From NCBI GenBank assembly GCA_014687725.1, contig GCA_014687725.1_4094.1: a stretch of DNA of 64,000 nucleotides, one strand, 5' to 3'. A program made the position numbers and the translations under genes. Within the stretch, counting starts at the first letter, position 1; each line of letters begins with the position of its first letter. Shown in pieces: positions 27,621 through 46,263 of the stretch. The notes beneath the pieces were generated by a model. It was given only the letters and a program-made list of their open reading frames with translations. It made no database searches and had not been told where the DNA came from. This stretch comes from a phage.

Positions 27621-27639
27621 CACCAGCTTGTGCTGGTGG
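27621..27639. repeat. perfect inverted repeat CCACCAGC-ttgt-GCTGGTGG (Chi octamer in both orientations)
   Basis: Direct reading; hairpin-capable palindrome containing Chi. Confidence 0.6.
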
Positions 27640-27785
27640 ATTCCCTCTAACAGTATTCAGTACTACATGATGGTCTTCATCCTCCTAGGGTAACATAGTG
27701 AGGGCTATGATGGCAGTACTGAATACTCCCTTTCAAAAGATAGATCTATGGTATAGTACTGACGGATTTTGGGTGTAGTTACCCT

Positions 27786-27945
27786 GGATGGATTTTGGAC
27801 GTAGATATGTCTAGTCCTCCAGAAGTCTGGAAGTAAAGATGGCTATCCATCTAGACGGCTAAACGGCTAGATTTCTGGATGGCTGGATGGCTAGACGTTT
27901 GGACGGCTAGATGGTTACACGTCTGGAAGTATAGACGGCTAAATC
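27786..27945. repeat. iteron-like cluster of short direct repeats (GACGGCTARA, GGATGGCT, TCTGGAAGTA) followed by AT-rich tract
   Basis: At least 8 imperfect repeat units in ~150 bp, then aaaattttattttgtttttt. Confidence 0.55.
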
Positions 27946-28685
27946 AAAATTTTATTTTGTTTTTTCCAATAGTTCCCCTACCGCGTGGGGATAGTTTCCC
28001 CGCAGTATCTGGAGTTAGATTTTTCTGAATCTGGAATCATTATCTTATAAACTGGGGGCAATGTCAACGGCCTGGACGGATATTTTTAAAAATTTTTTCA
28101 GTACTGAATTTTGGGCGTAACTATGCACCCGGTGGGCTTGAGTCTTTCTCGACTTGATGGAACTATTATACAGTACTGGAAAAATAAAGCAATACCCTGG
28201 AAGCAAAAAAGTTTTAATTAATTTGCTTGCTATCCTGGGCCGGACTATGGTACTATATTTCAGTACTGAGAAAGTGCTTTTACCTGCTAGGGTGCGGGAG
28301 TGTATCCTTTTTAAATTTACTGAATTTTGGGCGTAGTTCCGCACCCTGTGGGTTAGTGCCTTGTGTCCGGCTTATGTAGTAATTATACGCTTTTTCAGGA
28401 TCAAGTCAATACCTAAAAACAAAATAATTGAAAATAATTTAACGCGTTTAAACGGCCCGTAAAGCCCTGGAATGATTGGAATGGTGCAAATGTATAGCTT
28501 AGGTGTATTAATGCGTTAGAATGCGTCTGAGGCCGTTTTATGGGGTGTAGTAGTGATTTGGTTGATTCAGTACTGAATGATAGTACTACTATATAGAAAG
28601 ATAGTTCCCCTGGATGGTTGCAGTACTGAAAGATAGTTCCCCTATATAGAAAGAAAACTATTTTAAAAGTATTTGTAGAAAGTAC

Positions 28686-28713
28686 TTGCAAAGTATTGGG
28701 AAAGGTGTAGAAT
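28686..28713 (+). promoter_or_regulatory. early-type sigma70-like promoter (type 1)
   Basis: AGTACTTGCAA -35, 16-nt spacer, TAGAAT -10, then gTTTTACATcgag and 5' hairpin; this architecture recurs >20 times in 28.7-47 kb. Confidence 0.5.
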
Positions 28714-28770
28714 GTTTTACATCGAGACGGGGGATACGCTCCCGACTCACTTTTAAAAGAGATTAAAACG

Positions 28771-29133
28771 ATGGCGACTCAAATCAATACTATCATGCTT
28801 AACCTGGTTTCTTTCCGTGAAGAGATGAAAGATCTTCCCGCTGAGACTGTACGGATTCACATTGCAGCTTATCGGGAATTGATTGCAATGCTGCCGCTTA
28901 AGCGTGAACAGTACGCCGCTACTGCAATGCTGGACGCAATGATACATAAGATGATCCAGACTGATTTAACGATGGCTTATCAGTACATGGGCGAAATGTT
29001 TGCAGTGTATAGCAAGCCAGTACCAGGAATGGAAAGTACAGAAGTATTACACGGCTTAAACTTAAAACAAGATGCATGGGATAATATGCCTCGTTTCCTG
29101 GTATGGGCTGATAGTGGAAAGATTTACGAATAA
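28771..29133 (+). CDS. hypothetical early protein
   Basis: Own promoter and leader hairpin; ATG start. Confidence 0.6.
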   Translation: MATQINTIMLNLVSFREEMKDLPAETVRIHIAAYRELIAMLPLKREQYAATAMLDAMIHKMIQTDLTMAYQYMGEMFAVYSKPVPGMESTEVLHGLNLKQDAWDNMPRFLVWADSGKIYE

Positions 29134-29147
29134 GTTTTTAAAAGTAC

Positions 29148-29175
29148 TTGCAAAGTAAGTTTAAAGGCGTATAAT
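29148..29175 (+). promoter_or_regulatory. early-type promoter (type 1)
   Basis: TTGCAA, 16 nt, TATAAT. Confidence 0.5.
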
Positions 29176-29187
29176 ACTTTACATCAG

Positions 29188-29207
29188 GTGGGGAATAGTT
29201 CCCCACT
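29188..29207 (+). promoter_or_regulatory. conserved 5'-UTR stem-loop (example copy)
   Basis: GTGGGGA-atagt-TCCCCAC between -10 box and SD. Confidence 0.5.
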
Positions 29208-29226
29208 ATATAAGAGGATTAAAAAA

Positions 29227-29466
29227 ATGGCTAAATCAAAAATGTTCTTAGGTCACAAAAACAAAACTCAATGGAATGTAAGCCTTTGGATTAATAACGA
29301 CGAATCATTATACCGGTTGGCCCAGGACTTTATTGCCGCTAACACTAATCGTAATGATGCGGCCCGTCATATGATGCTATTTTTAGAACAGACTGGACAA
29401 GATAAAACACCGGACGGCTTTAAGTATAGCACTACTGCGATCCGTGCGGCGATGGTTGGAATGTAA
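29227..29466 (+). CDS. hypothetical early protein
   Basis: Track ORF starts at GTG inside the leader hairpin; ATG at 29227 follows AAGAGGA. Confidence 0.55.
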   Translation: MAKSKMFLGHKNKTQWNVSLWINNDESLYRLAQDFIAANTNRNDAARHMMLFLEQTGQDKTPDGFKYSTTAIRAAMVGM

Positions 29467-29548
29467 GAGAATAGATTAAAAGTACTATTGCACGGTGATA
29501 GTACTTTATAATAGATTTCTTTTATACAACAACGATAGGGGTAACAGC

Positions 29549-29815
29549 ATGAATATTATATACTTTGCAACGCGTGAACTTGCTCGGATTGCCGCACGCC
29601 AGGACGGGGCGACGTTTAAAGATATGGGCGTACAATCTGAACGTGGTAAACGTTGGGCCGTAGTAAAGCAAAGTACAGCCCGTTCAATTCAGTACTGGCT
29701 ATCTGCTTTAAAGCGTCCTGATAGTGTATCGCGTCGCGTGGTAGAAATAAAGCACGACCGCAAGGGCAACCGCGTTACTGTGTACAGTACTAAAAAGATT
29801 GCAGTACTTGAATAA
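29549..29815 (+). CDS. hypothetical early protein, paralog of 41865-42260
   Basis: Shared YATRE.ARI.AR..GA.FKDMG...RWAV and HDRKGNRVTVYS blocks. Confidence 0.55.
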   Translation: MNIIYFATRELARIAARQDGATFKDMGVQSERGKRWAVVKQSTARSIQYWLSALKRPDSVSRRVVEIKHDRKGNRVTVYSTKKIAVLE

Positions 29816-29901
29816 AAAGTACTTGCAAACTATGTTTAAGGGCGTATAATGTTTTACATCGAGAGCGGGAATAGTTCCCGCCTATAACCAGGAGTAATAA
29901 A

Positions 29902-30132
29902 ATGACCAATATGTATATGACTGAAGTTAAAACCGTAAAAGATACTACCACTAATAAAACTACTTACTTACAGCGGATCTGCGGTGTATGGCAACGTATC
30001 AGCAAATCAAAGTACTTTAAATTAACATCATATGCCAATCGTTCGGATTCATTCAGTACTGAAATAAAAGGTAATAAAGTACACCAATACGGCACTTATT
30101 ATTATTATAGCCTGGAGGCGATTGCAGTATAA
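29902..30132 (+). CDS. hypothetical early protein
   Basis: Promoter + GCGGGAA-tag-TTCCCGC leader hairpin + AGGAG. Confidence 0.55.
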   Translation: MTNMYMTEVKTVKDTTTNKTTYLQRICGVWQRISKSKYFKLTSYANRSDSFSTEIKGNKVHQYGTYYYYSLEAIAV

Positions 30133-30159
30133 GTAGTTTACAAATCTTTACAATTGCCA

Positions 30160-30350
30160 GTATTGACTTATTTTGTCAGTACTGGCATAATGTATTCATT
30201 GGCAGATAAGCCGTAGCCCATAGGGTGCGGGAGTGTATCTATAGAAAAATTAGTTTAGTATAGTTACAATTGTGCACCCGGTGGGTTAGCTGTTGTCATG
30301 GGGTATATTATGCCAGTACTTGATAATGCTGTCAATACTTTTTTTTAATA
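30160..30350 (+). repeat. structured repeat element with own promoter (candidate small RNA)
   Basis: TTGACT, 17 nt, CATAAT, then inverted arms CCCATAGGGTGC ... GCACCCGGTGGG and U-run; arms recur elsewhere. Confidence 0.35.
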
Positions 30351-30559
30351 TTCAGTACTGAAAACTATTTTTAAAAAGTACTTGCAAACTATGTTTAAAG
30401 GCGTATAATGTTTTACATCAGGACGGGGGACGAAATAAGTAACTTCCCGTTAAGTAGCCCAGGAGTAAGGCACACGAAAAACTCCCCTGATAAAATAGTT
30501 TGACAATTGTTTTTAAAAGCGTATAATACTTACATCAACTACTGAATGAGGGTTACAAA

Positions 30560-31171
30560 ATGAAAACTATCACTACTACTACTTTCGTTATGGATTTTTC
30601 TGAATTGAACGCAGAACAACAAACGTCAGCTATCGAACTGGTTCGGGAACGTGAAAAAAACTCAAACGACAATTATTTTTCTGAAAGTGAAATTGAATAC
30701 TATAAAGAAACAGTACTACCGGAATATGGCATTAATGACGCTGAAATACAATTCAGTGGTTTTTGGTCCCAGGGTGACGGTGCATCAATCAGTACTGACC
30801 ACGTTGACGCAGTGAAGTTTTTACGCAAGGTAAGAGCATTAACTAAGTATCGCTCAATCCGTCACCTGCTGAATGAAGATGATTTGGCGATGAGTGTAAA
30901 GCGTTCTCACTCCCACTACTCGCATGAGAATACTGTAAGCGGGTACATTGAATCGGCTTACACTGATTTAACCGCAAAACAAGAAACGTTAGTTAATGAG
31001 CTTGAGGAACTACTCACTGAAACTATTCGTGAATTGTCCCGCAAGTTGTACCGTGATTTAGAGAATGCATATGAGGATCAATTCACTACTGAAAACATTA
31101 CGGCACTGATTGAGGGTAACGAATATCAATTCAATGTTATTGATGGCGTAGTAGAATCAATCGAATATTAA
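30560..31171 (+). CDS. hypothetical early protein (203 aa)
   Basis: Tandem promoters with structured leader upstream; ATG after GAGGG. Confidence 0.6.
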   Translation: MKTITTTTFVMDFSELNAEQQTSAIELVREREKNSNDNYFSESEIEYYKETVLPEYGINDAEIQFSGFWSQGDGASISTDHVDAVKFLRKVRALTKYRSIRHLLNEDDLAMSVKRSHSHYSHENTVSGYIESAYTDLTAKQETLVNELEELLTETIRELSRKLYRDLENAYEDQFTTENITALIEGNEYQFNVIDGVVESIEY

Positions 31172-31264
31172 TTCAAAAAGTACTTGCAAACTAAGTTTAA
31201 AAGCGTATAATACTTTATATCGAGGCGGGGAATGGTTCCCCGCTCACACTAAAAGGGCAACAAA

Positions 31265-31537
31265 ATGAAAACTTTAAATATCACAACTGCACATCAATTG
31301 GTTCGGGATGCAATGGATCATGTGCAAGATTTCTTCCCTGATGTAAGTGTCGTAACTTATGAAAAAGGTACTTGGACTTATTCAACAATTAATGGTTATG
31401 AGCCTGATTTCGATGATCTGGAAGAAATGGAATTTAATTTTGATCTGCTGAATGATGCCGCCCGTGAAGTTGAAAACGATGTTCAATACATTGATGGTTC
31501 TGTCGCACCTGATGCAGTAAAAGAATTAAAAAACTAA
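31265..31537 (+). CDS. hypothetical acidic protein
   Basis: Promoter + leader hairpin + ATG. Confidence 0.55.
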   Translation: MKTLNITTAHQLVRDAMDHVQDFFPDVSVVTYEKGTWTYSTINGYEPDFDDLEEMEFNFDLLNDAAREVENDVQYIDGSVAPDAVKELKN

Positions 31538-31622
31538 AAAGTACTTGCATTGTAGTTAGATTAACGTATAATACTTTATATCGAGGCGGGGAATGGTTCC
31601 CGCCTTTACTGAGGGTTATCTA

Positions 31623-31883
31623 ATGAGCAAAGTAATTAACTATACAGTGTTAAGCAAGTCATTGTCTATTAGCCAATGTACTGATGGTTATTGGCTTTAT
31701 GATGAAACGCGTGGCATGAATTTAGCTATGCAGGAGAAAACTACTGATGCGGCATATCTTAAAGCACTGGAATACTACCAGAAGCGTTTAAAGGAAGTAG
31801 AAAACGATTATAATAACCTGAAAGCGAAAGTAGATAATTTCGTTGGTCAATTCATCGAGGAAGACGACGACATACAATATTGA
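31623..31883 (+). CDS. hypothetical early protein
   Basis: Start moved to ATG downstream of leader hairpin. Confidence 0.5.
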   Translation: MSKVINYTVLSKSLSISQCTDGYWLYDETRGMNLAMQEKTTDAAYLKALEYYQKRLKEVENDYNNLKAKVDNFVGQFIEEDDDIQY

Positions 31884-31968
31884 AAAAGTACTTGCAATTA
31901 GTTTTTAGTACTGTATAATGGTTTACATAGAGGGGGAAATGGTTCTCCCTGGTAATGAGGAAAATAAA

Positions 31969-32190
31969 ATGGCTAATATCACTACTCTTTCCCAACTGGA
32001 AGCACTGGTTAAATCTATGCGGGAACATGCCGACAAAATCGGCGTACAAGATCCAGCCGTTTGCTTCTGCGACGAATTGAATGATGATACCCTGGTAATA
32101 GCAGAAGTCCAGGACGTTTCTAACTATTCCTCGCGTTACACTGGCGGCGTAGCAAATAAAGGTGACTTCTGTTTATACCTTACAAAATAA
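31969..32190 (+). CDS. hypothetical early protein
   Basis: Start moved to MANITTL after AATGAGGAAAATAAA. Confidence 0.5.
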   Translation: MANITTLSQLEALVKSMREHADKIGVQDPAVCFCDELNDDTLVIAEVQDVSNYSSRYTGGVANKGDFCLYLTK

Positions 32191-32194
32191 CAAC

Positions 32195-32225
32195 GCGGGG
32201 AGATAATAACTCCCCGTTACTTTTT
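32195..32225 (+). terminator. intrinsic terminator
   Basis: GGGGAG-ataataa-CTCCCC then gttaCTTTTT. Confidence 0.5.
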
Positions 32226-32433
32226 CAGTACTGAATCATTTAATAGACGGATCTCGGCACCCGGTGGGTTAGTGACTGTTTCGTCTTGATGTAGTAATTA
32301 TGCCAGTACTGGATGCACTTGTCAACAACTATTTTTCAAATACTTTTTATTAAAATACTTGCAATTAGTTTTTAAACGCGTATAATGTTTTGCATAGGGG
32401 GAGCGGTTCCCCTGGTAACTAAGGAATAAGAAA

Positions 32434-32670
32434 ATGGTCGAACAAATCAAATCAACGTCTTCGAATGTAACGGGAACGGTAGCACACTTTACTAGTGATG
32501 AATCGCGGGGCGTTCCCTATTGTGCTGTACATGTAAACACTGAGGGTAACTACTGGTTTACGGTTTACGGATCATATTCATTTGGACGGCCAGGGCATCA
32601 AAAAATTCTGGATAAAGTACAACCAACGGGTAAAAATATCACTGCCGAAATGTTTTATAAAAAATCATAA
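32434..32670 (+). CDS. hypothetical early protein
   Basis: Promoter + hairpin + AAGGAATAAGAAAATG. Confidence 0.55.
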   Translation: MVEQIKSTSSNVTGTVAHFTSDESRGVPYCAVHVNTEGNYWFTVYGSYSFGRPGHQKILDKVQPTGKNITAEMFYKKS

Positions 32671-32754
32671 AGTACTTGATAATAGTTTTTAGTACTGTAT
32701 AATATTTTACATCGCAAGGGGGAGCGGTTCCCCCTGGTAACTAAGGATAATCAA

Positions 32755-33054
32755 ATGAAAATTGCAATCATCGCCCTGGCTTTATCTGTTTCCTCTTTCG
32801 CTGTTAATGCGTCATTAGATGTAAGTAGTGAAAAATTCATTCAGTGCACTGTTGCAATGACCGATGAAAGTACTGGCGAGATTGTTTTAAAGGATTTAGA
32901 GATCCAGCCAGAAGCATTTAAAAACGGGCCGTTCCATGAAGAAGACGAAAAAGGTAGCACGACAATTTATTACGATGCAAGTACTAAACGCGGTTCGGTC
33001 ACTGTTATGGATACTGAGAAAGTTACATTCACTGGCGTAATTAATTGTTTATAA
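32755..33054 (+). CDS. secreted/periplasmic small protein (predicted signal peptide)
   Basis: MKIAIIALALSVSSFAVNA/SLD: n-h-c regions with AxA-like cleavage site. Confidence 0.6.
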   Translation: MKIAIIALALSVSSFAVNASLDVSSEKFIQCTVAMTDESTGEIVLKDLEIQPEAFKNGPFHEEDEKGSTTIYYDASTKRGSVTVMDTEKVTFTGVINCL

Positions 33055-33071
33055 TATAGTACTGAATCACT

Positions 33072-33100
33072 AGCCCACTATAAGAAGTGGGCTTTTTTTA
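33072..33100 (+). terminator. intrinsic terminator
   Basis: AGCCCACT-ataagaa-GTGGGCT + TTTTTTT. Confidence 0.65.
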
Positions 33101-33292
33101 TTGTAGTATTGTAGTACTGGTATACTTTGAAAATAGTTTTAAAAAAGTAGTTGACATTACCAGGGAAAAGCGTAGAATGTATTACATCAAGACGGGGAAC
33201 ACTAAGTAGACCGCCAGTAAGTCGAATGAAAAACTGGACACGTCAAACAAACTTTGATAAACTAACTTAAACTTTAATTGAGGATTTATAAA

Positions 33293-33775
33293 ATGGCTAA
33301 TGTAAAATCATTTCTGAAAGCACTGATTTCTAACGATACTGTTATTGCTGCTGAATTGCTGGCTGACCTGGATAATGATACCATGAAAGCAGTACGCAAC
33401 AATTTTAACATTGCTTACAGTGAAGCGAAAGAACTACAAGCCAAAAAGGTAGCAGAACTGGAAGAACAGAAAAAAGCCCGTGAAGCAGAACTGCAAGCAA
33501 CAATAGAAAGTATTCAGGCGGCGGTGTCTGGTTTAGATCTGGAAGTGGTTATTGAAATGGCACATAAAGCCCTGGCGGTTAAGTACGGTGAAGATAAGCC
33601 GGAATCTAAGCCTAAAAAATGGATTCAAGAACGTGTTACGGTTGTCCTTGATAACGGGGAAGAACATTTGATTCCTGTACGCGGTAACTGCATTGCGGTA
33701 GTACTGGATGCAATCAAAGAAAGCGGTATGACTCGCGAGGAATGGATCGAAGCTCACCGCAAAGTTGAAGCATAA
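33293..33775 (+). CDS. hypothetical protein (160 aa), coiled-coil-like central region
   Basis: Start moved to MANVKSF after GAGGA; K/E/A-rich heptad-like stretch. Confidence 0.55.
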   Translation: MANVKSFLKALISNDTVIAAELLADLDNDTMKAVRNNFNIAYSEAKELQAKKVAELEEQKKAREAELQATIESIQAAVSGLDLEVVIEMAHKALAVKYGEDKPESKPKKWIQERVTVVLDNGEEHLIPVRGNCIAVVLDAIKESGMTREEWIEAHRKVEA

Positions 33776-33796
33776 CAATTAAAGTACTGAATCACT

Positions 33797-33823
33797 AGCC
33801 CACTGTATAAGTGGGCTTTTTTG
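33797..33823 (+). terminator. intrinsic terminator
   Basis: AGCCCACT-gtata-AGTGGGCT + TTTTTT. Confidence 0.65.
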
Positions 33824-34059
33824 TGTTTATCGTTTACCAGGCCACCAGCACCGCCTAGAATCGATTCTAACGCATTAAACTGATTATCTGATGCATCGCC
33901 CTAGCTGGTGGCGTTAAGGTCGTTAGAATGCGATTGAGGACGTTTAAAGTATTTTGCAAAAAGTAATAAAAAGTACTTGCACGATTAAGAGATTAGCGTA
34001 TAATGTTTTACATCGAGAGGGGGAAACGGTTCTCCTTCCAAATCAAAGGAATCAAAACA

Positions 34060-34287
34060 ATGGCTATCGTAATCGCTTATGTAACTGGTACTACTGGCAC
34101 TTCTTCTACTGTTGCTGTAATTACCAACAAGAAAGGTGCGGAATTACATTCTGCAATGGATACCTGGGCGGTAAATGAGTTCGGTCAGTGGGCAAGTGTA
34201 GCATATGTTGAAACCTATCAAGTGCCAACCATTAGCTTAACGGATCTCGGTGTAGATCGTATCCTTTGCCTGGATGAATTAAATTAA
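34060..34287 (+). CDS. hypothetical early protein
   Basis: Start moved to MAIVIAY downstream of leader hairpin. Confidence 0.5.
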   Translation: MAIVIAYVTGTTGTSSTVAVITNKKGAELHSAMDTWAVNEFGQWASVAYVETYQVPTISLTDLGVDRILCLDELN

Positions 34288-34373
34288 AAAAGTACTTGCA
34301 AAGTAAATCAGATAAAGTATAATACATTACATCAAGGGGAGAAATGGTTCTCCCTGATAATGAGGAAACTAAT

Positions 34374-34517
34374 ATGAAAACTTGTCAATGTGGTAAAAAA
34401 TCTATTACTGGTTTAAAGCGGGGCGTTGCTCTTTGCCAGTACCATTATAATTTACAAGTATGGGGTAAAGAATGGGCCGACCAGGTGGAAGCAGCAAAGA
34501 AAGCAAAAAGTAAGTAA
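34374..34517 (+). CDS. small Cys-containing protein (47 aa)
   Basis: Below track cutoff; full promoter-hairpin-SD-ATG context; CQCG...C.YH pattern. Confidence 0.4.
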   Translation: MKTCQCGKKSITGLKRGVALCQYHYNLQVWGKEWADQVEAAKKAKSK

Positions 34518-34536
34518 AATTATTATCACAGTACTA

Positions 34537-34565
34537 TTGACATAGATTGATAGTACTGGCATAAT
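34537..34565 (+). promoter_or_regulatory. early promoter (type 2, AGTACT-flanked)
   Basis: cAGTACTaTTGACA, 17 nt, gatAGTACTGG-CATAAT; no 5' hairpin; recurs at ~34820, ~37690, ~37970, ~38500, ~45410. Confidence 0.5.
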
Positions 34566-34598
34566 AGATTTTATCAAGACAACTAAGAGGAAACAATA

Positions 34599-34811
34599 AT
34601 GGCTATCATCACAAAAATCAAAGTAAACAAATCACTGGTTAAGCTGGAAGAAGTGAAAGAAGGTTATAAAGTATCGTGGTGCGGCATGTATCGGATTTTT
34701 ACAGATGTTGACGATGCAATCAATTACTACACTGACACGGTAAAAAACTTTGTTCGTGCTGATGTGGTTATGGCAGTGGCAACACACAAAGCATCGAAAG
34801 AAAGTAAGTAA
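34599..34811 (+). CDS. hypothetical early protein, paralog of 37763-37942
   Basis: Both start MAII.K; type-2 promoter upstream. Confidence 0.55.
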   Translation: MAIITKIKVNKSLVKLEEVKEGYKVSWCGMYRIFTDVDDAINYYTDTVKNFVRADVVMAVATHKASKESK

Positions 34812-34892
34812 AAATATTATCACAGTACTATTGACATAGTTTGATAGTACTGGCATAATAGATTTTATCAAGACAACTAAGAGGAAATTAAA

Positions 34893-38191: not shown

Positions 38192-38220
38192 AGCCCACTG
38201 GTTAACGCTGGTGGGCTTTA
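38192..38220 (+). terminator. intrinsic terminator containing a Chi octamer
   Basis: AGCCCAC-tggttaacgct-GGTGGGCT + TTT; GCTGGTGG at ~38207-38214. Confidence 0.45.
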
Positions 38221-38640: not shown

Positions 38641-38819
38641 TGCAGTTGGTTAGACGAAAGGTTATGATTAGTAGTGGAAGTGTATAAAAATTTTCATGGT
38701 GTGGTGATCCGCACATATGGGGATGAATATGTCGTGTCGTATGGATTGGAAAAAGTAAGAACAAGTAATATACTTGTCGCGTTACAGTACTATAGTATTT
38801 TTATAATGAGGTTAAAATA

Positions 38820-39077: not shown

Positions 39078-39140
39078 AAAGTATTGACAGTACTGAAAGA
39101 TAGTGTATAATATTTTATATCTTAACTGAGGATTGAAATC

Positions 39141-39497
39141 ATGGGAATACAACATATCACGCGTACTACTGACAATGGCGAGATCACTGGCTATCAAGTA
39201 CAGGGCAAAGTAGCACAATTGCAGTACTGGTTTGTTAAACGTGGAATCATTGCACCGGATCTTGATTATGACCGTGTAGCGTTTATTGATTCTCTTTATG
39301 TTGATCCTGATAGTCGGGGCAATGGTGAAGGTAACGAATTAATGAATGCCTTTATTGATGCCGCCGATGATTCAGATTGTATCATTTTAGAATGCGATAC
39401 GGGAGAAGATAACGCCTTTAATCTTAAAGAATGGTACGAAGGTTTCGGATTCGAGGTACTGATCGATAGTGAATATCCTATCATGATTTTATCATAG
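39141..39497 (+). CDS. GNAT-like N-acetyltransferase (small)
   Basis: VAFIDSLYVDPDSRGNGEGNELMNAF ... NAFNLKEWYEGFGF resembles GNAT motifs A/B. Confidence 0.5.
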   Translation: MGIQHITRTTDNGEITGYQVQGKVAQLQYWFVKRGIIAPDLDYDRVAFIDSLYVDPDSRGNGEGNELMNAFIDAADDSDCIILECDTGEDNAFNLKEWYEGFGFEVLIDSEYPIMILS

Positions 39498-39575
39498 TAC
39501 TTGCATTTAGTTTTCAGTACTGTTATAGTACTTACATCAAGGGGAAACATCTTCCCCTACTAAGAGGAAATAAAA

Positions 39576-39764
39576 ATGGAAAACTTATCAAGTATTTTAG
39601 TACAAGATGATTTCGGTAATCCTGGAAGTGCTATCATTGTTCGGGGTAATAAAGCAACATTTGTTATTGCTGGTGGACCTGTACAGCGTAGCATTAAAAA
39701 TAATGCTGTTACCATTAATAATGTACGCTATCGCTTAGATAAAGAATTGATTCATAAACTTTAA
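39576..39764 (+). CDS. hypothetical early protein
   Basis: Promoter + hairpin + AAGAGGAAATAAAAATG. Confidence 0.5.
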   Translation: MENLSSILVQDDFGNPGSAIIVRGNKATFVIAGGPVQRSIKNNAVTINNVRYRLDKELIHKL

Positions 39765-39848
39765 AAAGTATTTGACAATAGATTATAGTACTGTATAATA
39801 AGTTACATGAAGGGGTGAAATGATTCTCCCCACTAAGAGGAAAGAAAA

Positions 39849-40061
39849 ATGCAAGGTCAACTAATCGTTCGTAAATGGTCTGATACTAACGAAAAACCGT
39901 GGGATGTACAATACATCGGACCGGATGGGGTATCACGTTATCAGCCTGGCGTAACGCATAGTACTGAGCAATTCGCAAACGCTCACCGCGAACGCCTGTT
40001 AGAATCCATGAAACAGGGATTCTGTGAAAAATTCATTCAAGATCATTGGCTGAAAGATTAA
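39849..40061 (+). CDS. hypothetical early protein
   Basis: Promoter + hairpin + SD. Confidence 0.55.
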   Translation: MQGQLIVRKWSDTNEKPWDVQYIGPDGVSRYQPGVTHSTEQFANAHRERLLESMKQGFCEKFIQDHWLKD

Positions 40062-40078
40062 TATAAGGAGTACAGCTT

Positions 40079-40171
40079 ATGCAAATGAATCCGATGATTA
40101 TTGTTTTAGCTGTACTTATGATCATTCATGCAATAGTAGAAGTATTAACGCAATCAGGAGTAATAAAATGA
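40079..40171 (+). CDS. very small hydrophobic peptide (30 aa)
   Basis: AAGGAG 8 nt upstream; ATGA-coupled to next ORF; speculative. Confidence 0.3.
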   Translation: MQMNPMIIVLAVLMIIHAIVEVLTQSGVIK

Positions 40172-40341
40172 TTCAAGTAGAATTATCAGTACTGAAAGAT
40201 CTGTTTTATCGGTTAGGTACTACTGGCGAGTATCCTAAAAGTGATACCGCAAAACTTTTTGTATCACTCGACTTATGGCAACGCGAACAATTAGTAATGT
40301 CCTGGCGTAAAGGTAAAGCAGATAGCGAGGTGAAAGCATGA
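40168..40341 (+). CDS. small protein (57 aa)
   Basis: Below track cutoff; ATGA coupling both sides. Confidence 0.4.
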   Translation: MIQVELSVLKDLFYRLGTTGEYPKSDTAKLFVSLDLWQREQLVMSWRKGKADSEVKA

Positions 40342-40487
40342 AAGAATTCTTATTCGAAGTAGTGTTTCAAGGTGTCGGTAGTAACCAACTGATTCGCTCA
40401 AGTGGTTACAATGTTAACCAGGCATGGAATAACATTAAACAAATGTACCCGAACGCTATCACCTATCGCAACCCGAAACAAGTTTAA
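40338..40487 (+). CDS. small protein (49 aa)
   Basis: Below track cutoff; followed by terminator/promoter hairpin. Confidence 0.4.
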   Translation: MKEFLFEVVFQGVGSNQLIRSSGYNVNQAWNNIKQMYPNAITYRNPKQV

Positions 40488-40501
40488 AAATAATTGAAAA
40501 A

Positions 40502-40534
40502 GGGATTGACTCCGGTCAGTCCCTTTGCTATTAT
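40502..40534 (+). promoter_or_regulatory. terminator/promoter element (copy 5)
   Basis: GGGATTGAC-TCCG-GTCAGTCCC, TTTG, TTGACT/17 nt/TATTAT. Confidence 0.55.
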
Positions 40535-40635
40535 ATACGCATAGAAACAAATCAGCCCACAGGGTGCATAAATGTATCTATTGTTTGCTGGTGGCTAGTA
40601 CTATCAAGTACTGAAAACTATTTTTAAAAAAGTAC

Positions 40636-40663
40636 TTGCATTGTACTTAGAATCAAGTATAAT
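40636..40663 (+). promoter_or_regulatory. early promoter P1 of tandem pair
   Basis: TTGCAT, 16 nt, TATAAT; upstream A/T-rich tract and TCAGTACTGA. Confidence 0.5.
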
Positions 40664-40751
40664 GTTTTACATCAGGACGGGGAACGAAACAAGTAACCCC
40701 GTTAAGTAGTCCAGGAGTAAGACATAAGAAAACCTCCCCTGATAAAATAGT

Positions 40752-40779
40752 TTGACAATAGAAAGTAAACGAGTATAAT
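40752..40779 (+). promoter_or_regulatory. early promoter P2 of tandem pair
   Basis: TTGACA, 16 nt, TATAAT; separated from P1 by a ~60-nt structured leader, duplicated at 30360-30560. Confidence 0.5.
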
Positions 40780-40812
40780 ACTTACATCAACCACTGATAA
40801 GGAAACATTAAA

Positions 40813-41088
40813 ATGCGGATTCTACTGACAGCTAACGAAATCGAACAAGTACTGACTACTAACCTGGAAGACTGGAAACGTGAAGCAGATATCCAGGCGG
40901 TTCAACGGCTTAACGATGAGTTAACGCCGGATGACTTAAGCAAGATTGTAGATCCTCAATTCTACGAAGATATCCACGACACCGCGTTAAGCGTCGAGGA
41001 TGTACTAGATAAGCACTACATTGATATTGATTTGCAGGTTTACGGTCGTAAAAACTTTATCACTATTCACGACATTTACAATAATTAA
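40813..41088 (+). CDS. hypothetical acidic protein
   Basis: ATG after AAGGAAACATTAAA. Confidence 0.55.
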   Translation: MRILLTANEIEQVLTTNLEDWKREADIQAVQRLNDELTPDDLSKIVDPQFYEDIHDTALSVEDVLDKHYIDIDLQVYGRKNFITIHDIYNN

Positions 41089-41174
41089 GTATTGACAAAG
41101 TATCTTAGTACTGTATAATAGTTTACATCGAGAGGGGGAATGGTTCCCCTCCTAACAAAGAGAGAGAAATAAAA

Positions 41175-41357
41175 ATGGCTAAATGCACTATCTGTAAGAA
41201 AGAAATCGTATTAGTTCCAAGTGCCCGTGAACGTGCCGCTCGGTTCGGTGGCAAACCGTCAGACTATACAAAAATGTTTACTGTCCATGCAGCTTGCCAG
41301 GTAGCAAAACGTTCACAAGAAAGCGTAGAATTAATGCGTAAACTTTCCAAAAAATAA
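41175..41357 (+). CDS. hypothetical small protein
   Basis: Promoter + hairpin + GAGAGAGAAATAAAAATG. Confidence 0.5.
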   Translation: MAKCTICKKEIVLVPSARERAARFGGKPSDYTKMFTVHAACQVAKRSQESVELMRKLSKK

Positions 41358-41445
41358 GTATTGACAAAGTATCTTAGTACTGTATAATAGTTTACATCAA
41401 GTGAGGGGAAACGGTTCCCCTCCTAACAAAGAGAGAGAAATAAAA

Positions 41446-41769
41446 ATGGCTATGATCCTTGCCCAGAAAGTAGAACTGAAAATTGTAACCTCCTTTGACA
41501 TTAAAGTTAATCGGTGGACTGATTCACACGGCAATACTTACCACTCTTGCTACGTGTCTGCGTTAATTGGTGATCGTTGGGAAGACCTGGGACATGAAAC
41601 CTTTACATACGGTTACGGCACACAAGGCGAATACACGGGCTTGGAGATCATTAAAGAAACCGTTATAGGTTTCAACCCGAAAGAAACAGTTATTCACCGC
41701 ATCGAGGAAGAGATCAACAAAGAAATAACAGTTCGATACTACGATGTAAAACGTAAGAAAGATATGTAA
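41446..41769 (+). CDS. hypothetical protein, paralog of 34893-35237
   Basis: Start moved to MAMILAQ; duplicated promoter/leader with 41175 gene. Confidence 0.55.
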   Translation: MAMILAQKVELKIVTSFDIKVNRWTDSHGNTYHSCYVSALIGDRWEDLGHETFTYGYGTQGEYTGLEIIKETVIGFNPKETVIHRIEEEINKEITVRYYDVKRKKDM

Positions 41770-41864
41770 TAGAATCCATTTAAAGTACTATTTGACATTG
41801 CCCAGATAGTACTTTATAATAGACTCTAACTTGTAGTACTAACTCAACTAATAGGATGTATACC

Positions 41865-42260
41865 ATGATTACTAAATTCTACGCTACCCGTGAAGCTGCC
41901 CGTATTGTTGCACGCGAGGAAGGAGCAGCATTTAAAGACATGGGCAAAGATGCACCGAAAGGCCAACGCTGGGCCGTACAGTTCAAAGAGATCTCTGATA
42001 TTGTGAATTCACCTGAGCCAGTACTAACAGCAGCAGAACTAAAACGAGCGGATTTACTGGCGTCAATACTTGATGCACAAGATGAGTTTATCGCTGATTC
42101 TGATATCAAAGTACAGACAAACCATACCGCTTGGACTCACGCGGATCACCTGGCAAACCTGAAGCGTCCAAGTGAACTGGTACGCAACCAGAAAGAGATC
42201 CGACACGACCGTAAGGGTAATCGTGTAACAGTATACAGTAAACGCCGCCAGGTTATCTAA
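41865..42260 (+). CDS. hypothetical protein, paralog of 29549-29815
   Basis: Start moved to second ATG (AGGA upstream). Confidence 0.55.
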   Translation: MITKFYATREAARIVAREEGAAFKDMGKDAPKGQRWAVQFKEISDIVNSPEPVLTAAELKRADLLASILDAQDEFIADSDIKVQTNHTAWTHADHLANLKRPSELVRNQKEIRHDRKGNRVTVYSKRRQVI

Positions 42261-42282
42261 TAACTTGCAGTACTAACAACAC

Positions 42283-42307
42283 GGCGGGATCAGTTCCCGC
42301 CTTTTTT
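42283..42307 (+). terminator. intrinsic terminator
   Basis: GGCGGGA-tcagt-TCCCGCC + TTTTTT. Confidence 0.65.
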
Positions 42308-42321
42308 ATAGGACAAACAAA

Positions 42322-42576
42322 ATGATTAAGGTTCAACTATATAAAGATAATATCTTGCGGGTACACTATAAAGCCCCTCAGAGAATCATCACAAAGGCCG
42401 TACAGCTTGCTAATGAGTTTATTAATGGTAACCTATTACCAAGGAAGTTAAGCAACGGAAAACTGCGTGTAATCGATGTAGACACTAACAACAGAATAGT
42501 AATTGAGAACACAGGAAAGATAAACCTATATGAACACCAACAATATAATAAGAAAATAAAACTAATATCACGTTGA
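42322..42576 (+). CDS. hypothetical protein
   Basis: ATG after GGACAAACAAA. Confidence 0.5.
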   Translation: MIKVQLYKDNILRVHYKAPQRIITKAVQLANEFINGNLLPRKLSNGKLRVIDVDTNNRIVIENTGKINLYEHQQYNKKIKLISR

Positions 42577-42629
42577 CAGTACTCAATTGTTTTAGTACTA
42601 TGTACATATACCAACACGGGAGAAACAAA

Positions 42630-42848
42630 ATGAAATTATCTAAAATCGAAAAGAAAACTATTGATGAAGCAGTTAAGCACGGTTATACCTTTCGTAATGA
42701 TTCACATTTTACCAATTTTCAACAAGGGTATCGTACTATTAAAAAACTCATTGACAAAGGTTTATTAGTTGAAGTCAATAACGGCAATGGTATTGAGTAT
42801 CAACCAACACAAGACGCATTTTATTTTAAGAAATATAATATTATCTAA
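42630..42848 (+). CDS. hypothetical protein, tandem duplicate pair member
   Basis: Promoter TTGACA/17/TACTAT and leader duplicated at 42849-42905. Confidence 0.5.
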   Translation: MKLSKIEKKTIDEAVKHGYTFRNDSHFTNFQQGYRTIKKLIDKGLLVEVNNGNGIEYQPTQDAFYFKKYNII

Positions 42849-42905
42849 TTGACAGTACTCAAATGTTTTAGTACTATATGTACATACCAACACGGGGAAA
42901 ACAAA

Positions 42906-43148
42906 ATGATTACTTTAGAAAAACGTATCAAAGAAACTACATCGCTGGTGGAACTGTTAACAGTACTGAAATGCCGTACTACTCGGTTTAGTACACCGGA
43001 CTTTATTAATATGGTTGATGTTAACGGTCGTTATCGCATTGCAGTAGAACAAGGAACAGCGAAAGTATTCAGTACTAAAAACACTAAGGAAGTGATTCAT
43101 GCTGTAAGTGTTAAAAAAGTAGTTGCCATTGATAGTAAAGTACTGTAA
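42906..43148 (+). CDS. hypothetical protein, tandem duplicate pair member
   Basis: Same promoter/leader as previous gene. Confidence 0.5.
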   Translation: MITLEKRIKETTSLVELLTVLKCRTTRFSTPDFINMVDVNGRYRIAVEQGTAKVFSTKNTKEVIHAVSVKKVVAIDSKVL

Positions 43149-43179
43149 GATAGTTTCATTAACTCAAGGAGAACATGCA

Positions 43180-43764
43180 ATGCGTAATTATACTAAATTC
43201 ATCCGTACCCTGTCAGAAATGGAAACCAACAAAGAGATCCTTTCAGCTTGTCGGTTAGCTGGTCTGGAGATCATCGGTGCGGGTTCTTCCCGTATTGTAT
43301 TCGCTTTAAATGATCGGTTAGTGATCAAGGTCGCGAATTGTGATGCGGGTGTAGAACAAAATGAAACTGAATGTAAGGTATGGAATTTTTTAGATTATGA
43401 CCGCCCTCAATTGAAACAGTACTTTGCAAAGGTGCATATGCATTTATGCGATCCTGATAATATGTTTATCGTTATGGATCGGTTGAGTACTGCAAGTAAA
43501 GGCAGTGTAAAGCACGTAAACGCGTGCAATGAATTAAAGTACAATATTAAACGTAATGCCATTGAACGCCAGCACCGCTTTGCTGATGCACTACAACACG
43601 TTGATGATACATTATCAACACTAACGATAAGAGATATCAGAAAACAGAATATCGGCCAGGATCGTAATGGCCTTATTAAAGTACTTGATTACGGTTTAAC
43701 CCGCAATATCTGGAATCAGTACTATAAAAAGCGTGATGTAGAAGCAAGTAAGGTAACACGATAA
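43180..43764 (+). CDS. protein-kinase-like protein (atypical Ser/Thr kinase fold)
   Basis: IIGAGSSRIVF (Gly-rich loop), LVIKV (beta3 Lys), RDIRKQNIG (catalytic loop), KVLDYG (DFG-like); AAGGAG SD. Confidence 0.55.
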   Translation: MRNYTKFIRTLSEMETNKEILSACRLAGLEIIGAGSSRIVFALNDRLVIKVANCDAGVEQNETECKVWNFLDYDRPQLKQYFAKVHMHLCDPDNMFIVMDRLSTASKGSVKHVNACNELKYNIKRNAIERQHRFADALQHVDDTLSTLTIRDIRKQNIGQDRNGLIKVLDYGLTRNIWNQYYKKRDVEASKVTR

Positions 43765-43777
43765 AAAAGATTAAAAA

Positions 43778-43812
43778 AGGGATTGACTCCGGTCAGTCCC
43801 TTTGCTATTATA
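43778..43812 (+). promoter_or_regulatory. terminator/promoter element (copy 6)
   Basis: GGGATTGACTCCGGTCAGTCCC + TTTGCTATTAT. Confidence 0.55.
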
Positions 43813-43984
43813 TATTCATTGAGAGATAACTCACTGACCCATAGGGTGCGGAAGTGTATCTATTATATAAGTATTCAGTACTGAAAACTATTTTAAAAAA
43901 GTACTTGCAATGTACTTAGAATCAAGTATAATGTTTTACATAGAGAGGGGGAAATGGTTCTCCCTGGTAATAAGGAATAAAATC

Positions 43985-44206
43985 ATGACTACAATGACTT
44001 GCATTTACGCTTCCAATCTTCTGAATGATGCGGCCTTTAATGTTGATTCAGAATATCAATGTTATCGGGATGAAAATAAAAAAGTTTTTGTAGTTGATAA
44101 TAATGGTTTCCATATTGAATTACAATCCGGTTTCACTGGTGTTGATGGTAAATCAGTGTGGGGCGTACAGGATGATAAAGGCACATATCATTTTAAACGT
44201 AATTAA
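43985..44206 (+). CDS. hypothetical early protein
   Basis: Start moved to MTTMTC downstream of leader hairpin. Confidence 0.5.
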   Translation: MTTMTCIYASNLLNDAAFNVDSEYQCYRDENKKVFVVDNNGFHIELQSGFTGVDGKSVWGVQDDKGTYHFKRN

Positions 44207-44290
44207 GTATTGACAAAGTATATCAGTACTGTATAATAGTTTACATCAAGGGGAGAATAGTTCTCCCCGATACTAAAAGGAAACAAAATT

Positions 44291-44563
44291 ATGTCCAGCT
44301 ACTCCGCTACTATGATCATTAAAGATATGAACGGTAATCCTACTTCTGCTGGTGGATCATTTGGAAACATTAATTTAGATGGTCGGTTATCCATGCAATC
44401 AGCCATCGATGCAGCGAAAGAAGTTTTTAAGAATGAATGTACTGTTAGTAAGCTGGATTATATGGGATTCGCTATCGAGAAAACTAATCGTTTTGTGAAC
44501 TACAAAAATCCACTGATGATTGATACTAACCTGAAAGCTAACGAAGTGGGGTACTTATTATGA
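44291..44563 (+). CDS. hypothetical early protein
   Basis: Promoter + hairpin + AAAGGAAACAAAATTATG. Confidence 0.55.
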   Translation: MSSYSATMIIKDMNGNPTSAGGSFGNINLDGRLSMQSAIDAAKEVFKNECTVSKLDYMGFAIEKTNRFVNYKNPLMIDTNLKANEVGYLL

Positions 44564-44751
44564 CAGTAGAAGAAGTTAAAAAAGTACTGGCAGTACTACG
44601 CTATCATAATCATTGCAAGGTGAAGAATGATCCTGATTATGTTGATTCATCCCTGGAGGAAGACACATTAAACGCAATAAGCCATATGCAAACATTAGCA
44701 AAGCGTATGACCGAAAAGAATAGACCGGACTATATCGGAAATAAAATTTAA
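44560..44751 (+). CDS. hypothetical early protein
   Basis: ATGA overlap with previous. Confidence 0.5.
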   Translation: MTVEEVKKVLAVLRYHNHCKVKNDPDYVDSSLEEDTLNAISHMQTLAKRMTEKNRPDYIGNKI

Positions 44752-44837
44752 AAAGTACTTGCATTGTAGTTAGATTAACGTATAATGTTTTACATAGAGC
44801 GGGGGAACTATTCCCCCGCCAGTCCAGGAGATACACC

Positions 44838-45101
44838 ATGAACACTATCGAAATCACTATCAATGCACACGTATACGACAACGTAGTACTGCAAACTACT
44901 ATGACCGCTAATGATACCAGTACTTTGCGGAATACTGTTATTAGTGCCGTATGTGCCGCTATCGGTGATGTCGCCCTGGAAAATGCAGAACACATCAACA
45001 ACGGTTTCACTATGTGCAAACGTGATAACGCAAAACATATCATCGTAGAAGGTTACGGCGGTGTAGAATATAATCTTTATATGAAAAAAGTACTTGCATA
45101 A
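44838..45101 (+). CDS. hypothetical early protein
   Basis: Promoter + GCGGGGGAA-cta-TTCCCCCGC hairpin + AGGAG. Confidence 0.55.
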   Translation: MNTIEITINAHVYDNVVLQTTMTANDTSTLRNTVISAVCAAIGDVALENAEHINNGFTMCKRDNAKHIIVEGYGGVEYNLYMKKVLA

Positions 45102-45168
45102 TAACTAAAACAAAGTATAATGTTTTGCATAGGGGGAGATATCCTCCCCCACTAAAAGGAGTAATAAA

Positions 45169-45393
45169 ATGGCTAACTTTGATGAACTGATGCGGGAAGT
45201 AGCTAACCTGGCAGAAGAGAAGAAATCATTCGATTCTATCTATAACACCGCTCACCGTGATTCAGTACTGGCATGTACTCAGGATCAAAAAGATGAACTA
45301 ATCGCCACATATCATGAAGCATGGAAGTACTACCGCCAATGGGAGAAAGAAGAAAGCGAGTCTACCATCAACGGCATCAATAATCTAATCTAA
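45169..45393 (+). CDS. hypothetical early protein
   Basis: Promoter + hairpin + AAAGGAGTAATAAAATG. Confidence 0.55.
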   Translation: MANFDELMREVANLAEEKKSFDSIYNTAHRDSVLACTQDQKDELIATYHEAWKYYRQWEKEESESTINGINNLI

Positions 45394-45469
45394 AAGTTTT
45401 ATTTCAGTACTATTGACATAGCTTGATAGTACTGATGTAATAACTTTACTAACTACAAGGGGAAACATA

Positions 45470-45727
45470 ATGGAACAGTTCACACAATATCGGGTAAATC
45501 CTCAAGCTATGGCCTACGTAGAAGACCATAAAACGTTACCAGTACTAACACCAATTAAAGGCCATATCTATCGTGCAATGTCATGGAATACGGCCCAGGA
45601 TGGATATACTACCGCTGGCGTGGGTATGTATTGCGGGAATGGTGAATGGTTTGATCCAAATAATCCGGTAGCCATTGACAGTACTGAAAAAATGAAATGG
45701 GCCGACTACATCGAAGATATTTCATAA
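45470..45727 (+). CDS. hypothetical early protein
   Basis: Type-2 promoter; ATG after AAGGGGAAACATA. Confidence 0.55.
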   Translation: MEQFTQYRVNPQAMAYVEDHKTLPVLTPIKGHIYRAMSWNTAQDGYTTAGVGMYCGNGEWFDPNNPVAIDSTEKMKWADYIEDIS

Positions 45728-45816
45728 AACTATTTGACAGTACTAACCAGTAATGTATAATGTTTTACATAGAGCGGGGGAATAGTTCTCCCGCCAATAG
45801 TTTGGAGTAAAACATT

Positions 45817-46017
45817 ATGTCTATCGCTATCGCCCTGGTTGAAGTACTGAAAGAAGCTAAAGCCAACCTTATCGATGTACAGATTAAGGAATTACAAAAT
45901 GGTTTAATCGGCTGTACTTGTACCGCTGGTGGAGCGGCAGACTATCGGGAATTCGAATCACTTGAATCGATGGTCCGTTATCTTACCATGATCGTAGAAG
46001 ATTGGAGAATCATCTAA
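45817..46017 (+). CDS. hypothetical early protein
   Basis: Promoter + hairpin + TGGAGTAAAACATTATG. Confidence 0.5.
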   Translation: MSIAIALVEVLKEAKANLIDVQIKELQNGLIGCTCTAGGAADYREFESLESMVRYLTMIVEDWRII

Positions 46018-46035
46018 CAAAAAAGAATAAAAAAA

Positions 46036-46069
46036 GGGATTGACTCCGGTCAGTCCCTTTGCTATTATA
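46036..46069 (+). promoter_or_regulatory. terminator/promoter element (copy 7)
   Basis: GGGATTGACTCCGGTCAGTCCC + TTTGCTATTAT. Confidence 0.55.
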
Positions 46070-46263
46070 TACGCATAGACAAAAACTAGCCCACTGGGTG
46101 CAGGAGTGTATCTAAAATATATAGTTAATAACGGTGAGTAACTATCTGCTGGTGGGGTGAAAACTATTAATAAAAAAAGTATTGACAAAGTATATCAGTA
46201 CTGCAATAATGTATCTCGTAGGGCGGCAATGGTGCGACGGCCCACAAAGTTAGGAGATTCAAA

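Follow-up and report, generated by a model that had tools for sequence, protein, structure and literature searches.

Host Chi octamers clustered in the long terminal repeat of a 121Q-like jumbo coliphage, a likely cis-acting control of RecBCD at the genome ends

The Chi octamer GCTGGTGG, recognised by the RecBCD enzyme of E. coli (PMC12315714), is strongly over-represented in one segment of a 64,000 nucleotide stretch of phage DNA (contig GCA_014687725.1_4094.1 of GenBank assembly GCA_014687725.1, the whole of which is here called the window). This segment corresponds by homology to the direct terminal repeat (DTR) of related jumbo phages. We consider it likely that the Chi cluster is a cis-acting control of RecBCD entering at the genome ends, which would protect the DNA and favour RecA-mediated recombination between the repeats. 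The direct observations behind this reading are the enrichment, its restriction to the repeat, the specificity for the exact octamer, the recurrence in other lineages and the geometry relative to the mapped termini. A link to RecBCD had already been suggested in a preliminary description of this DNA, and a RecBCD-related role is indeed the best explanation of an enrichment that is confined to the repeat and to the exact octamer.

An exact search of the window found 14 copies of GCTGGTGG, nine on the plus strand (starting at 27632, 33904, 38207, 39669, 40587, 42944, 44348, 45925 and 46148) and five on the minus strand (15649, 15907, 16162, 27620 and 33842), whereas 100 dinucleotide-preserving shuffles contained 0.53 copies on average and never more than 3. 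The strong enrichment claimed in the preliminary description is thus borne out. All eight plus-strand positions listed there are correct, and the copy at 42944 had been overlooked. The reverse copies were said to be few, at about 27621, 33853 and 15650; these three exist, but the second is at 33842, and those at 15907 and 16162 had been missed. With an observed to expected ratio of 20.7, Chi is at the top of the frequent octamers of the window, excepting the AGTACT word family described below.

The minus-strand copies at 15649, 15907 and 16162 all lie inside one glycine-rich open reading frame (ORF) on the minus strand (15591..16346). They are a coding by-product of this ORF, since Gly/Ala codon words like GGTGGTGC are commoner there, and such words outnumber Chi in the non-repeat part of the window (GGTGGTGC with 8 copies). 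The other 11 copies, nine plus and two minus, span 27620-46155 and are all within 27043-47517, the predicted DTR. The guanine plus cytosine (GC) content of this segment is 38.2%, compared to 33.9% in the remainder of the window, and the density of Chi in this 38% GC DNA is 1 per 1.9 kb. Strand-specific Markov models of orders 2-4 predict 0.16-0.36 plus-strand and 0.02-0.09 minus-strand copies in the repeat, where 9 and 2 are observed; the order-5 model predicts 1.5 on the plus strand. Out of the 168 octamers of the same composition, Chi ranks first on the plus strand of the repeat (9 copies, runner-up 3, mean 0.30) and is tied for first on the minus strand. The 24 one-mismatch variants of Chi show no enrichment in the repeat, with 2 copies against 4.3 expected on the plus strand and none against 1.5 on the minus strand. 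There is therefore a true enrichment, limited to the E. coli Chi octamer in its exact form. In the small-ORF arrays flanking the repeat, at 22.5-26.8 kb and 47.6-53 kb, the exact search found no Chi.

The window is 90-96% identical, in mosaic pieces, to the E. coli jumbo phages 121Q, PBECO4, vB_Ec-M-J and fEgEco12 of Asteriusvirus. On these identities its source is assigned to a 121Q-like (Asteriusvirus) jumbo coliphage, and the host of the phage itself, judged from its closest relatives, would be E. coli, in agreement with the enterobacterial host using this Chi that had been proposed at the outset. Position 1 of the annotated 21,525-bp DTR of vB_Ec-M-J aligns to position 27043 of the window. 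For fEgEco12, whose 20,993-bp DTR was determined by PhageTerm and restriction digests (PMC13070987), the right physical terminus aligns to 47517 and the left edge of the right repeat copy to approximately 27043. By homology to these two phages, 27043-47517 (20,475 bp) is predicted to be the DTR equivalent; the corresponding segments of fEgEco12, vB_Ec-M-J, fENko-Kae01 and CBB are DTRs defined by experiment or by PhageTerm. Homology to the relatives is continuous over both boundaries into unique sequence, and the window is for this reason taken to be a collapsed assembly in which the repeat is present once. The gene layout switches at both boundaries, with small plus-strand genes each having a spacer on the inside and tightly abutting small ORFs on the outside. 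The preliminary description had missed the terminal repeat; the interval it reported for the octamers, 27621-46155, essentially coincides with the predicted DTR.

The Chi sites of the repeat are given below with their strand and context. EC22.5-2, mentioned there, is an unannotated relative with a complete genome of 351,992 bp.

27620..27639, both orientations: double-Chi palindrome CCACCAGC-TTGT-GCTGGTGG with 8-bp arms and a 4-nt spacer, within 1.7 kb of non-coding DNA and at 577 bp from the left terminus.
33842..33849, minus strand: intergenic Chi, 6.8 kb from the left terminus and facing the left end, just downstream of the terminator hairpin 33797-33817.
33904..33911, plus strand: intergenic Chi, forming a 9-bp inverted pair with the Chi at 33842 across 54 nt; conserved in vB_Ec-M-J, EC22.5-2 and 121Q.
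38207..38214, plus strand: intergenic Chi, overlapping the loop and 3' stem of the hairpin AGCCCAC-N12-GTGGGCT.
39669..39676, plus strand: Chi in a 62 amino acid ORF (39576..39764), read GCT GGT GGA (Ala-Gly-Gly).
40587..40594, plus strand: Chi in a 12-nt insertion within one copy of a repeated intergenic promoter element; conserved in relatives.
42944..42951, plus strand: Chi in a 99 amino acid ORF (42849..43148), read TCG CTG GTG GAA.
44348..44355, plus strand: Chi in a 90 amino acid ORF (44291..44563), read GCT GGT GGA.
45925..45932, plus strand: Chi in a 66 amino acid ORF (45817..46017), read GCT GGT GGA, 1585 bp from the right terminus; absent from 121Q.
46148..46155, plus strand: intergenic Chi in a different insertion of another copy of the repeated element, nearest to the right terminus (1362 bp).

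Non-coding DNA makes up 35.6% of the repeat but holds seven of the 11 copies (P=0.055). Of the four copies in ORFs, three read GCT GGT GGA and one CTG GTG; they occupy two reading frames, and no flanking motif common to the Chi copies was found. In the repeated element, the Chi at 40587 and the one at 46148 each belong to a separate small insertion, and the element copies at 36775, 43745 and 30330 have neither insertion nor Chi. Since Chi sits in separate insertions which other copies lack, amplification of the element does not explain the count, and Chi as an intrinsic part of the element was rejected on the alignment. The preliminary description had placed several Chi inside conserved intergenic elements, which is correct as far as the non-coding location and these two copies are concerned, but the element itself does not carry the octamer. 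As to the inverted pair at 33842 and 33904, its membership in a tRNA-like gene was considered and rejected, because a scan of the window with ARAGORN gave no tRNA.

The sites are conserved across Asteriusvirus, with 11 of 11 present in vB_Ec-M-J and EC22.5-2 and 9 of 11 in 121Q; fEgEco12 has ten plus and two minus Chi, that is one plus copy beyond the set of the window. The Chi at 33842 is kept in vB_Ec-M-J, EC22.5-2 and fEgEco12 and mutated to CCGTCAGC in 121Q. Measured against the window, the octamers have diverged by 2.0% and their 100-bp flanks by 4.5% (Fisher P=0.023), a sign of constraint. The double-Chi palindrome is shared by vB_Ec-M-J, EC22.5-2, 121Q and fEgEco12. In Klebsiella phage fENko-Kae01 it is found 484 bp from the PhageTerm-defined terminus, with both octamers intact, the spacer TTAA in place of TTGT, and diverged flanks. 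A scan of IMG/VR for CCACCAGC-N4-GCTGGTGG gave 46 matches with 121Q as the sole relative; the other matches look like chance occurrences in unrelated contigs and were rejected as related cases. The genome of EC22.5-2 carries 28 Chi, 11 of which (9 plus, 2 minus) are in the repeat-equivalent, a segment that makes up 6.0% of its length (binomial P=3e-7). The other 331 kb contain 17 Chi, ranking third behind GGTGCTGG and GGTGGTGC, and because of this ranking the modest excess outside the repeat looks like a matter of Gly/Ala codon usage.

Loci of other lineages were taken from INPHARED records; a search for loci related to one protein from the middle of the DTR gave two only, 121Q and a divergent IMG/VR contig (L011). 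The PhageTerm-defined 19,736-bp repeat of fENko-Kae01 contains 12 plus and 2 minus Chi, and the 22,456-bp repeat of Pectobacterium phage CBB 7 plus and 2 minus, with none in the next 7.5 kb. In the Rak2-like Klebsiella phage OU509535.1, all Chi of a 50-kb stretch (9 plus, 1 minus) fall within about 22 kb, and contig L011, to which the Chi flanks of the window do not align, has 12 plus and 4 minus. The fifth lineage is the "Xanthomonas" phage XaC1 (OR258281.1), whose positions 1-32000 were tried as a control with a different host Chi; they carry an E. coli-type cluster of 9 plus and 3 minus Chi and no Pseudomonas-type GCTGGCGC, and the following 13 kb hold no Chi. Plus-strand Chi ranks first out of the 168 same-composition octamers in the DTR or equivalent of all five other lineages. 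The positions are non-homologous in the three of the five lineages in which this was checked, and such recurrence at non-homologous positions argues for selection on the octamer itself. XaC1 is a jumbo phage of 35-38% GC reported on Xanthomonas vesicatoria; either the RecBCD of Xanthomonas may use the same octamer or the natural host of the lineage may be enterobacterial.

These comparisons bear on the simplest alternative, namely that no selection is involved and that the excess comes from local composition, Gly/Ala codon usage, repeated elements or common ancestry. Outside the DTR the Chi counts are accounted for by GGT/GCT codon words, three of the coding Chi within it read GCT GGT GGA, and the close Asteriusviruses have their sites by descent. 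The 9 plus-strand copies nevertheless exceed every Markov expectation given above, the first rank among 168 words holds in six lineages, most copies (seven of 11) fall outside coding sequence, the repeated element does not include the insertions that bear Chi, and L011, fENko-Kae01 and CBB have clusters of their own. The alternative is already disfavoured by these controls, and we regard it as extremely unlikely.

RecBCD responds to Chi only on approach from the 3' side, so that a Chi on the upper strand is active for entry at the right end (PMC12315714). With the termini mapped by homology, the nine plus Chi face the right terminus at 47517, at distances of 1362, 1585, 3162, 4566, 6923, 7841, 9303, 13606 and 19878 bp, and the two minus Chi, directed at the left terminus (27043), are 577 and 6799 bp away from it. 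All 11 are thus in the active orientation for the end they face. The co-orientation noticed in the preliminary description is real (9:2), but it is no stronger than strand composition predicts. Pooling of the six lineages gave 58 plus and 14 minus Chi, where the composition-expected plus fraction is 0.75 (P=0.34); the plus strand is G-rich and octamers of the same composition are biased alike. Co-orientation as a sign of directional selection was accordingly rejected. Nor is there support for the proposal that RecBCD travelling in one direction is addressed, as in the pooled lineages both orientations are enriched, plus 42-fold and minus 30-fold, and no single direction is picked out. A check of orientation against the genome ends, also proposed at the outset, gave a divided answer: there is no excess of the active orientation beyond composition, but plus and minus Chi each tend to lie closer to the end they face. 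The mean relative position is 0.26 (left) for minus Chi and 0.62 (right) for plus Chi (Mann-Whitney P=0.003) in the three lineages whose boundaries are defined, which form a small sample of partly non-independent cases. Unlike the strand ratio, this position pattern agrees with a model of entry at the ends.

The RecBCD reading is mechanistically sensible because the Chi cluster is part of a repeat present at both physical ends of the genome. RecBCD loads only at double-strand ends, which the packaged linear DNA would offer on both sides. An enzyme coming in from the right terminus would run into nine correctly oriented Chi, 1.4-19.9 kb in; one coming in from the left would find two, at 0.58 and 6.8 kb. 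On reaching Chi it would cease to destroy the 3'-ended strand and load RecA, and injected or replicating DNA, early-gene region included, would thereby be spared. The 3' tail so produced would always be within the repeat, for which homologous sequence would be available both at the opposite end of the same DNA and on sister molecules, and such tails could promote circularisation, concatemer formation or recombination-primed replication. The confinement of the cluster to the repeat fits the prediction of a homology-dependent role. That RecBCD acts on these ends, and that protection and recombination are the benefit, we infer from this geometry. The authors of the fEgEco12 study assume circularisation or concatemerisation via the repeats and do not mention Chi or RecBCD (PMC13070987). 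In the same study the DNA of fEgEco12 was cut as predicted by restriction enzymes (PMC13070987); it is therefore not heavily modified, and masking of Chi by bulk modification is unlikely. Among the 45 ORFs of the DTR no known RecBCD inhibitor or end-protection protein was detected with Pfam or among the PHROGs families listed.

Attenuation of RecBCD at the ends could also have been selected for another benefit, the evasion of defences fed by RecBCD, with fewer products for CRISPR spacer acquisition or for other RecBCD-triggered defences, and not for recombination. Chi is established as a boundary of spacer acquisition from double-strand ends, a finding attributed to Levy and colleagues in 2015. 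Chi found 0.6 kb and 1.4 kb from the two termini would suit such a benefit, and a recombinase of the phage's own weakens a rationale based on recombination only. One or two Chi per end would however be enough for this purpose, and 9-12 copies over the whole 20 kb, confined to the repeat, are better suited to a homology-dependent role; evasion as the selected benefit is in our view unlikely. We consider quite unlikely that the Chi sites act mainly as hotspots for the exchange of accessory early genes between co-infecting relatives, generating mosaic genomes, and play no part in the handling of ends. The DTR is in fact strongly mosaic, the best matches of the relatives covering only 35-61% of it in many pieces, and it is rich in small accessory genes of unknown function. 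Entry of RecBCD needs a double-strand end, though, so that the geometry of the ends would still be required; moreover the small-gene arrays at 22.5-26.8 kb and 47.6-53 kb are without Chi, and an association of position and orientation relative to the termini is not predicted by gene exchange.

The copy nearest to the left terminus, a perfect palindrome of the type expected for sites of dimeric proteins or for hairpins, lies in a repeat-rich non-coding terminal region, and one further Chi overlaps a hairpin stem. Both features would be in line with the octamer being a binding site or structural signal for a factor unrelated to RecBCD, acting in packaging, injection stop or transcription, with the match to Chi a coincidence. 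This is very unlikely, given that every copy is exact to the host Chi without a common flanking motif, that four copies are in coding DNA in two reading frames, and that the octamer recurs in phages of several enterobacterial hosts having this Chi.

Several points weigh against control of RecBCD as the function of the cluster. CBB encodes UvsX, gp46/47, UvsW and endonuclease VII (PMC5259590), and Rak2-like phages with T4-type recombination proteins of their own may not need RecBCD for recombination. The genome ends could be capped by protein rather than exposed, and either end could enter first. The long terminal repeat of T5, which also carries early genes, holds only 2 Chi in 10.2 kb. The DTR boundaries in the window rest on homology and not on its own reads, the ratio of plus to minus Chi is what strand composition predicts, so that orientation adds no independent support, and the statistics on position and conservation come from small, partly non-independent samples.

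Extended to the whole clade, control of RecBCD would mean that evolution has shaped the approximately 20-kb terminal repeat of Rak2-like jumbo phages into a RecBCD buffer that works in cis. It would be a landing zone dotted with Chi, in which the conserved double-Chi, about 0.5 kb inside the left end, is a gate for both directions. Such a zone would shield the incoming early-gene region before phage proteins are synthesised and steer end processing to repeat-to-repeat recombination despite the phages' own recombinase. This extension is put forward tentatively, as a possibility we hold to be rather doubtful. If it were true, repeat function and perhaps host range would depend in part on Chi content, and the cluster of XaC1 would predict either that its natural host is enterobacterial or that Xanthomonas shares this Chi specificity.

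The DTR itself is composed of small early-type genes, all on the plus strand. In 27043-47042 there are 12 perfect TTGACA-16/17-TATAAT sigma-70 promoters, all on the plus strand, and many more sequences match 10-11 of the 12 positions; several terminators have the common stem AGCCCAC(T)/(A)GTGGGCT. Pfam searches with the 45 DTR ORFs found only a DksA/TraR zinc finger, GNAT, ParE-like and DUF families, and in PHROGs the 25 most-matched of 40 families, together with both families of the first ORF, are all of unknown function. One ORF of 203 amino acids (30560-31171) has homologues among the other Rak2-like genera (RaK2, GAP32, CBB, XaC1) and, at about 59% identity, in rV5-like phages, annotated variously as protein kinase or hypothetical, and is a handy marker for finding the repeat in unannotated genomes. 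A side issue concerns 13-17 INPHARED records named "Campylobacter phage" (MG065666.1, MG065661.1, MG065635.1 and others) of about 128-141 kb, which match E. coli phage sequences as rV5-type coliphages do; their host label is doubtful.

On both sides of the left terminus (26894-27130) there are short tandem repeats, GTAATCA-type units and GTAGTGATCA (2.7 copies) on one side and TCAAATGTAA on the other. The first 1.7 kb of the DTR (27043-28770) are non-coding and carry a 24-bp unit in 3.8 copies at 27850-27941 and GATAGTTCCCC motifs. The repeats around the left terminus are candidate packaging or terminus-recognition sequences. The DTR is flanked by arrays of abutting or overlapping plus-strand ORFs of 60-90 amino acids (22556-26779 and 47585 to at least 50147), which have no intergenic promoters and some members of which are similar to each other (cross-matches at 48196-48637). 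On the minus strand, 11934-22471 contains eight ORFs of about 380-440 amino acids and the glycine-rich ORF mentioned above, of 251 amino acids, a run which looks like a paralogous family.

The repeated intergenic element is about 200 bp long and is found at 36775-37005, 40470-40700, 43745-43975 and 46040-46270, with partial copies near 28230 and 30330. It includes a hairpin of 12-bp stem, AAAGGGATTGACTCCGGTCAGTCCCTTT, embedding a TTGACT -35 box, after which come TATTAT, a conserved AGCCCACAGGGTGCA..GTGTATCT block and a second promoter (TTGCA..TATAAT); a short RNA might be encoded by the element. The palindromic hexamer AGTACT is present in 252 copies in the window, against 20-47 expected, and is densest at 24000-48000, its density being 6.35 per kb inside the terminal repeat compared to 2.8 per kb elsewhere; CAGTACTG alone accounts for 50 copies per strand. 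AGTACT frequently adjoins the -35 region of promoters (AAAAAGTACTTGCA) and may be a regulator-binding or UP-like element. The same word family heads the octamer lists in the repeats of fENko-Kae01, CBB and XaC1, and the string AGTACT is absent from the text of the CBB paper (PMC5259590).

A full-text literature search combining Chi or RecBCD with jumbo phages or direct terminal repeats returned no report of this feature, and neither the CBB paper (PMC5259590) nor the fEgEco12 paper (PMC13070987) mentions a Chi cluster. With these data, terminal clusters of Chi, known from temperate and lambdoid phages, are also on record for virulent jumbo phages of about 350 kb, a clade which breaks the published association of Chi richness with the absence of a phage recombination module. 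The data also supply a functional hypothesis for unusually long repeats whose genes nearly all lack a known function. From the practical point of view they are relevant to the phage therapy candidates of the genus and to the engineering or rebooting of linear genomes in recBCD+ cells, and terminal-repeat Chi clusters could help to recognise genome ends and the Chi specificity of the host from sequence alone.

The E. coli chromosome offers the reference for the octamer, which is identical, over-represented and active through RecBCD in dependence of its orientation. There Chi is distributed genome-wide at 1 per 4.6 kb (PMC12315714) in 51% GC DNA, largely within ORFs and oriented with replication, while the cluster described here is local, in 38% GC DNA and mostly non-coding. 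The whole-genome density of EC22.5-2, 1 per 12.6 kb (28 per 352 kb), is below that of E. coli, and the density of the DTR is above it.

Among phages, T5 is similar in its long exact direct terminal repeat at both ends, with small early genes and host-type promoters. The 10.2-kb repeat of T5 (NC_005859.1) contains its two Chi on the plus strand (8127 and 8689) and none on the minus strand, so a Chi cluster is not a general property of long terminal repeats. T5 transfers its DNA in two steps, the first-step-transfer DNA carrying the pre-early genes, and has an injection stop signal; its main pre-early genes (dmp, A1, A2) are transcribed toward the entering left end.

Lambdoid phages of the LLS class carry 23 Chi, 20 of them in the active orientation (20:3), concentrated at the right end at 1 per 1.86 kb (PMC12315714), and Pseudomonas phage MD8 has a terminal cluster of its host's Chi (Genome Res 2025, PMC12315714). 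Both resemble the DTR in having many Chi toward one genome end, mostly active for entry at the right end, and the density of LLS phages is close to the 1 per 1.9 kb of the DTR. What sets them apart is the lack of a recombination module, by which their Chi have been explained in print; Rak2-like phages, with UvsX and gp46/47 of their own (PMC5259590), fall outside this explanation. LLS phages also have cos ends and no long repeat, and their 20:3 bias was taken as selection, while the bias found here equals the compositional expectation.

Phage P1 and its relatives P7 and D6 have 50 Chi, and the majority fall within the terminally redundant regions that adjoin pac, or close by (Subramaniam and Smith, bioRxiv 10.1101/2021.07.08.451572; PMC12315714). 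They share with the window the concentration of host Chi at the ends, in the terminal redundancy, and for them too recombination between terminal repeats by RecBCD and RecA after injection has been proposed. P1 is however a temperate phage of about 95 kb, with headful packaging, variable ends, a redundancy of 5-10 kb and a whole-genome Chi density 2-3 times that of E. coli, whereas the phages described here are virulent, of about 350 kb, with fixed ends and an exact repeat of about 20.5 kb to which the cluster is confined, on a background of low whole-genome density.

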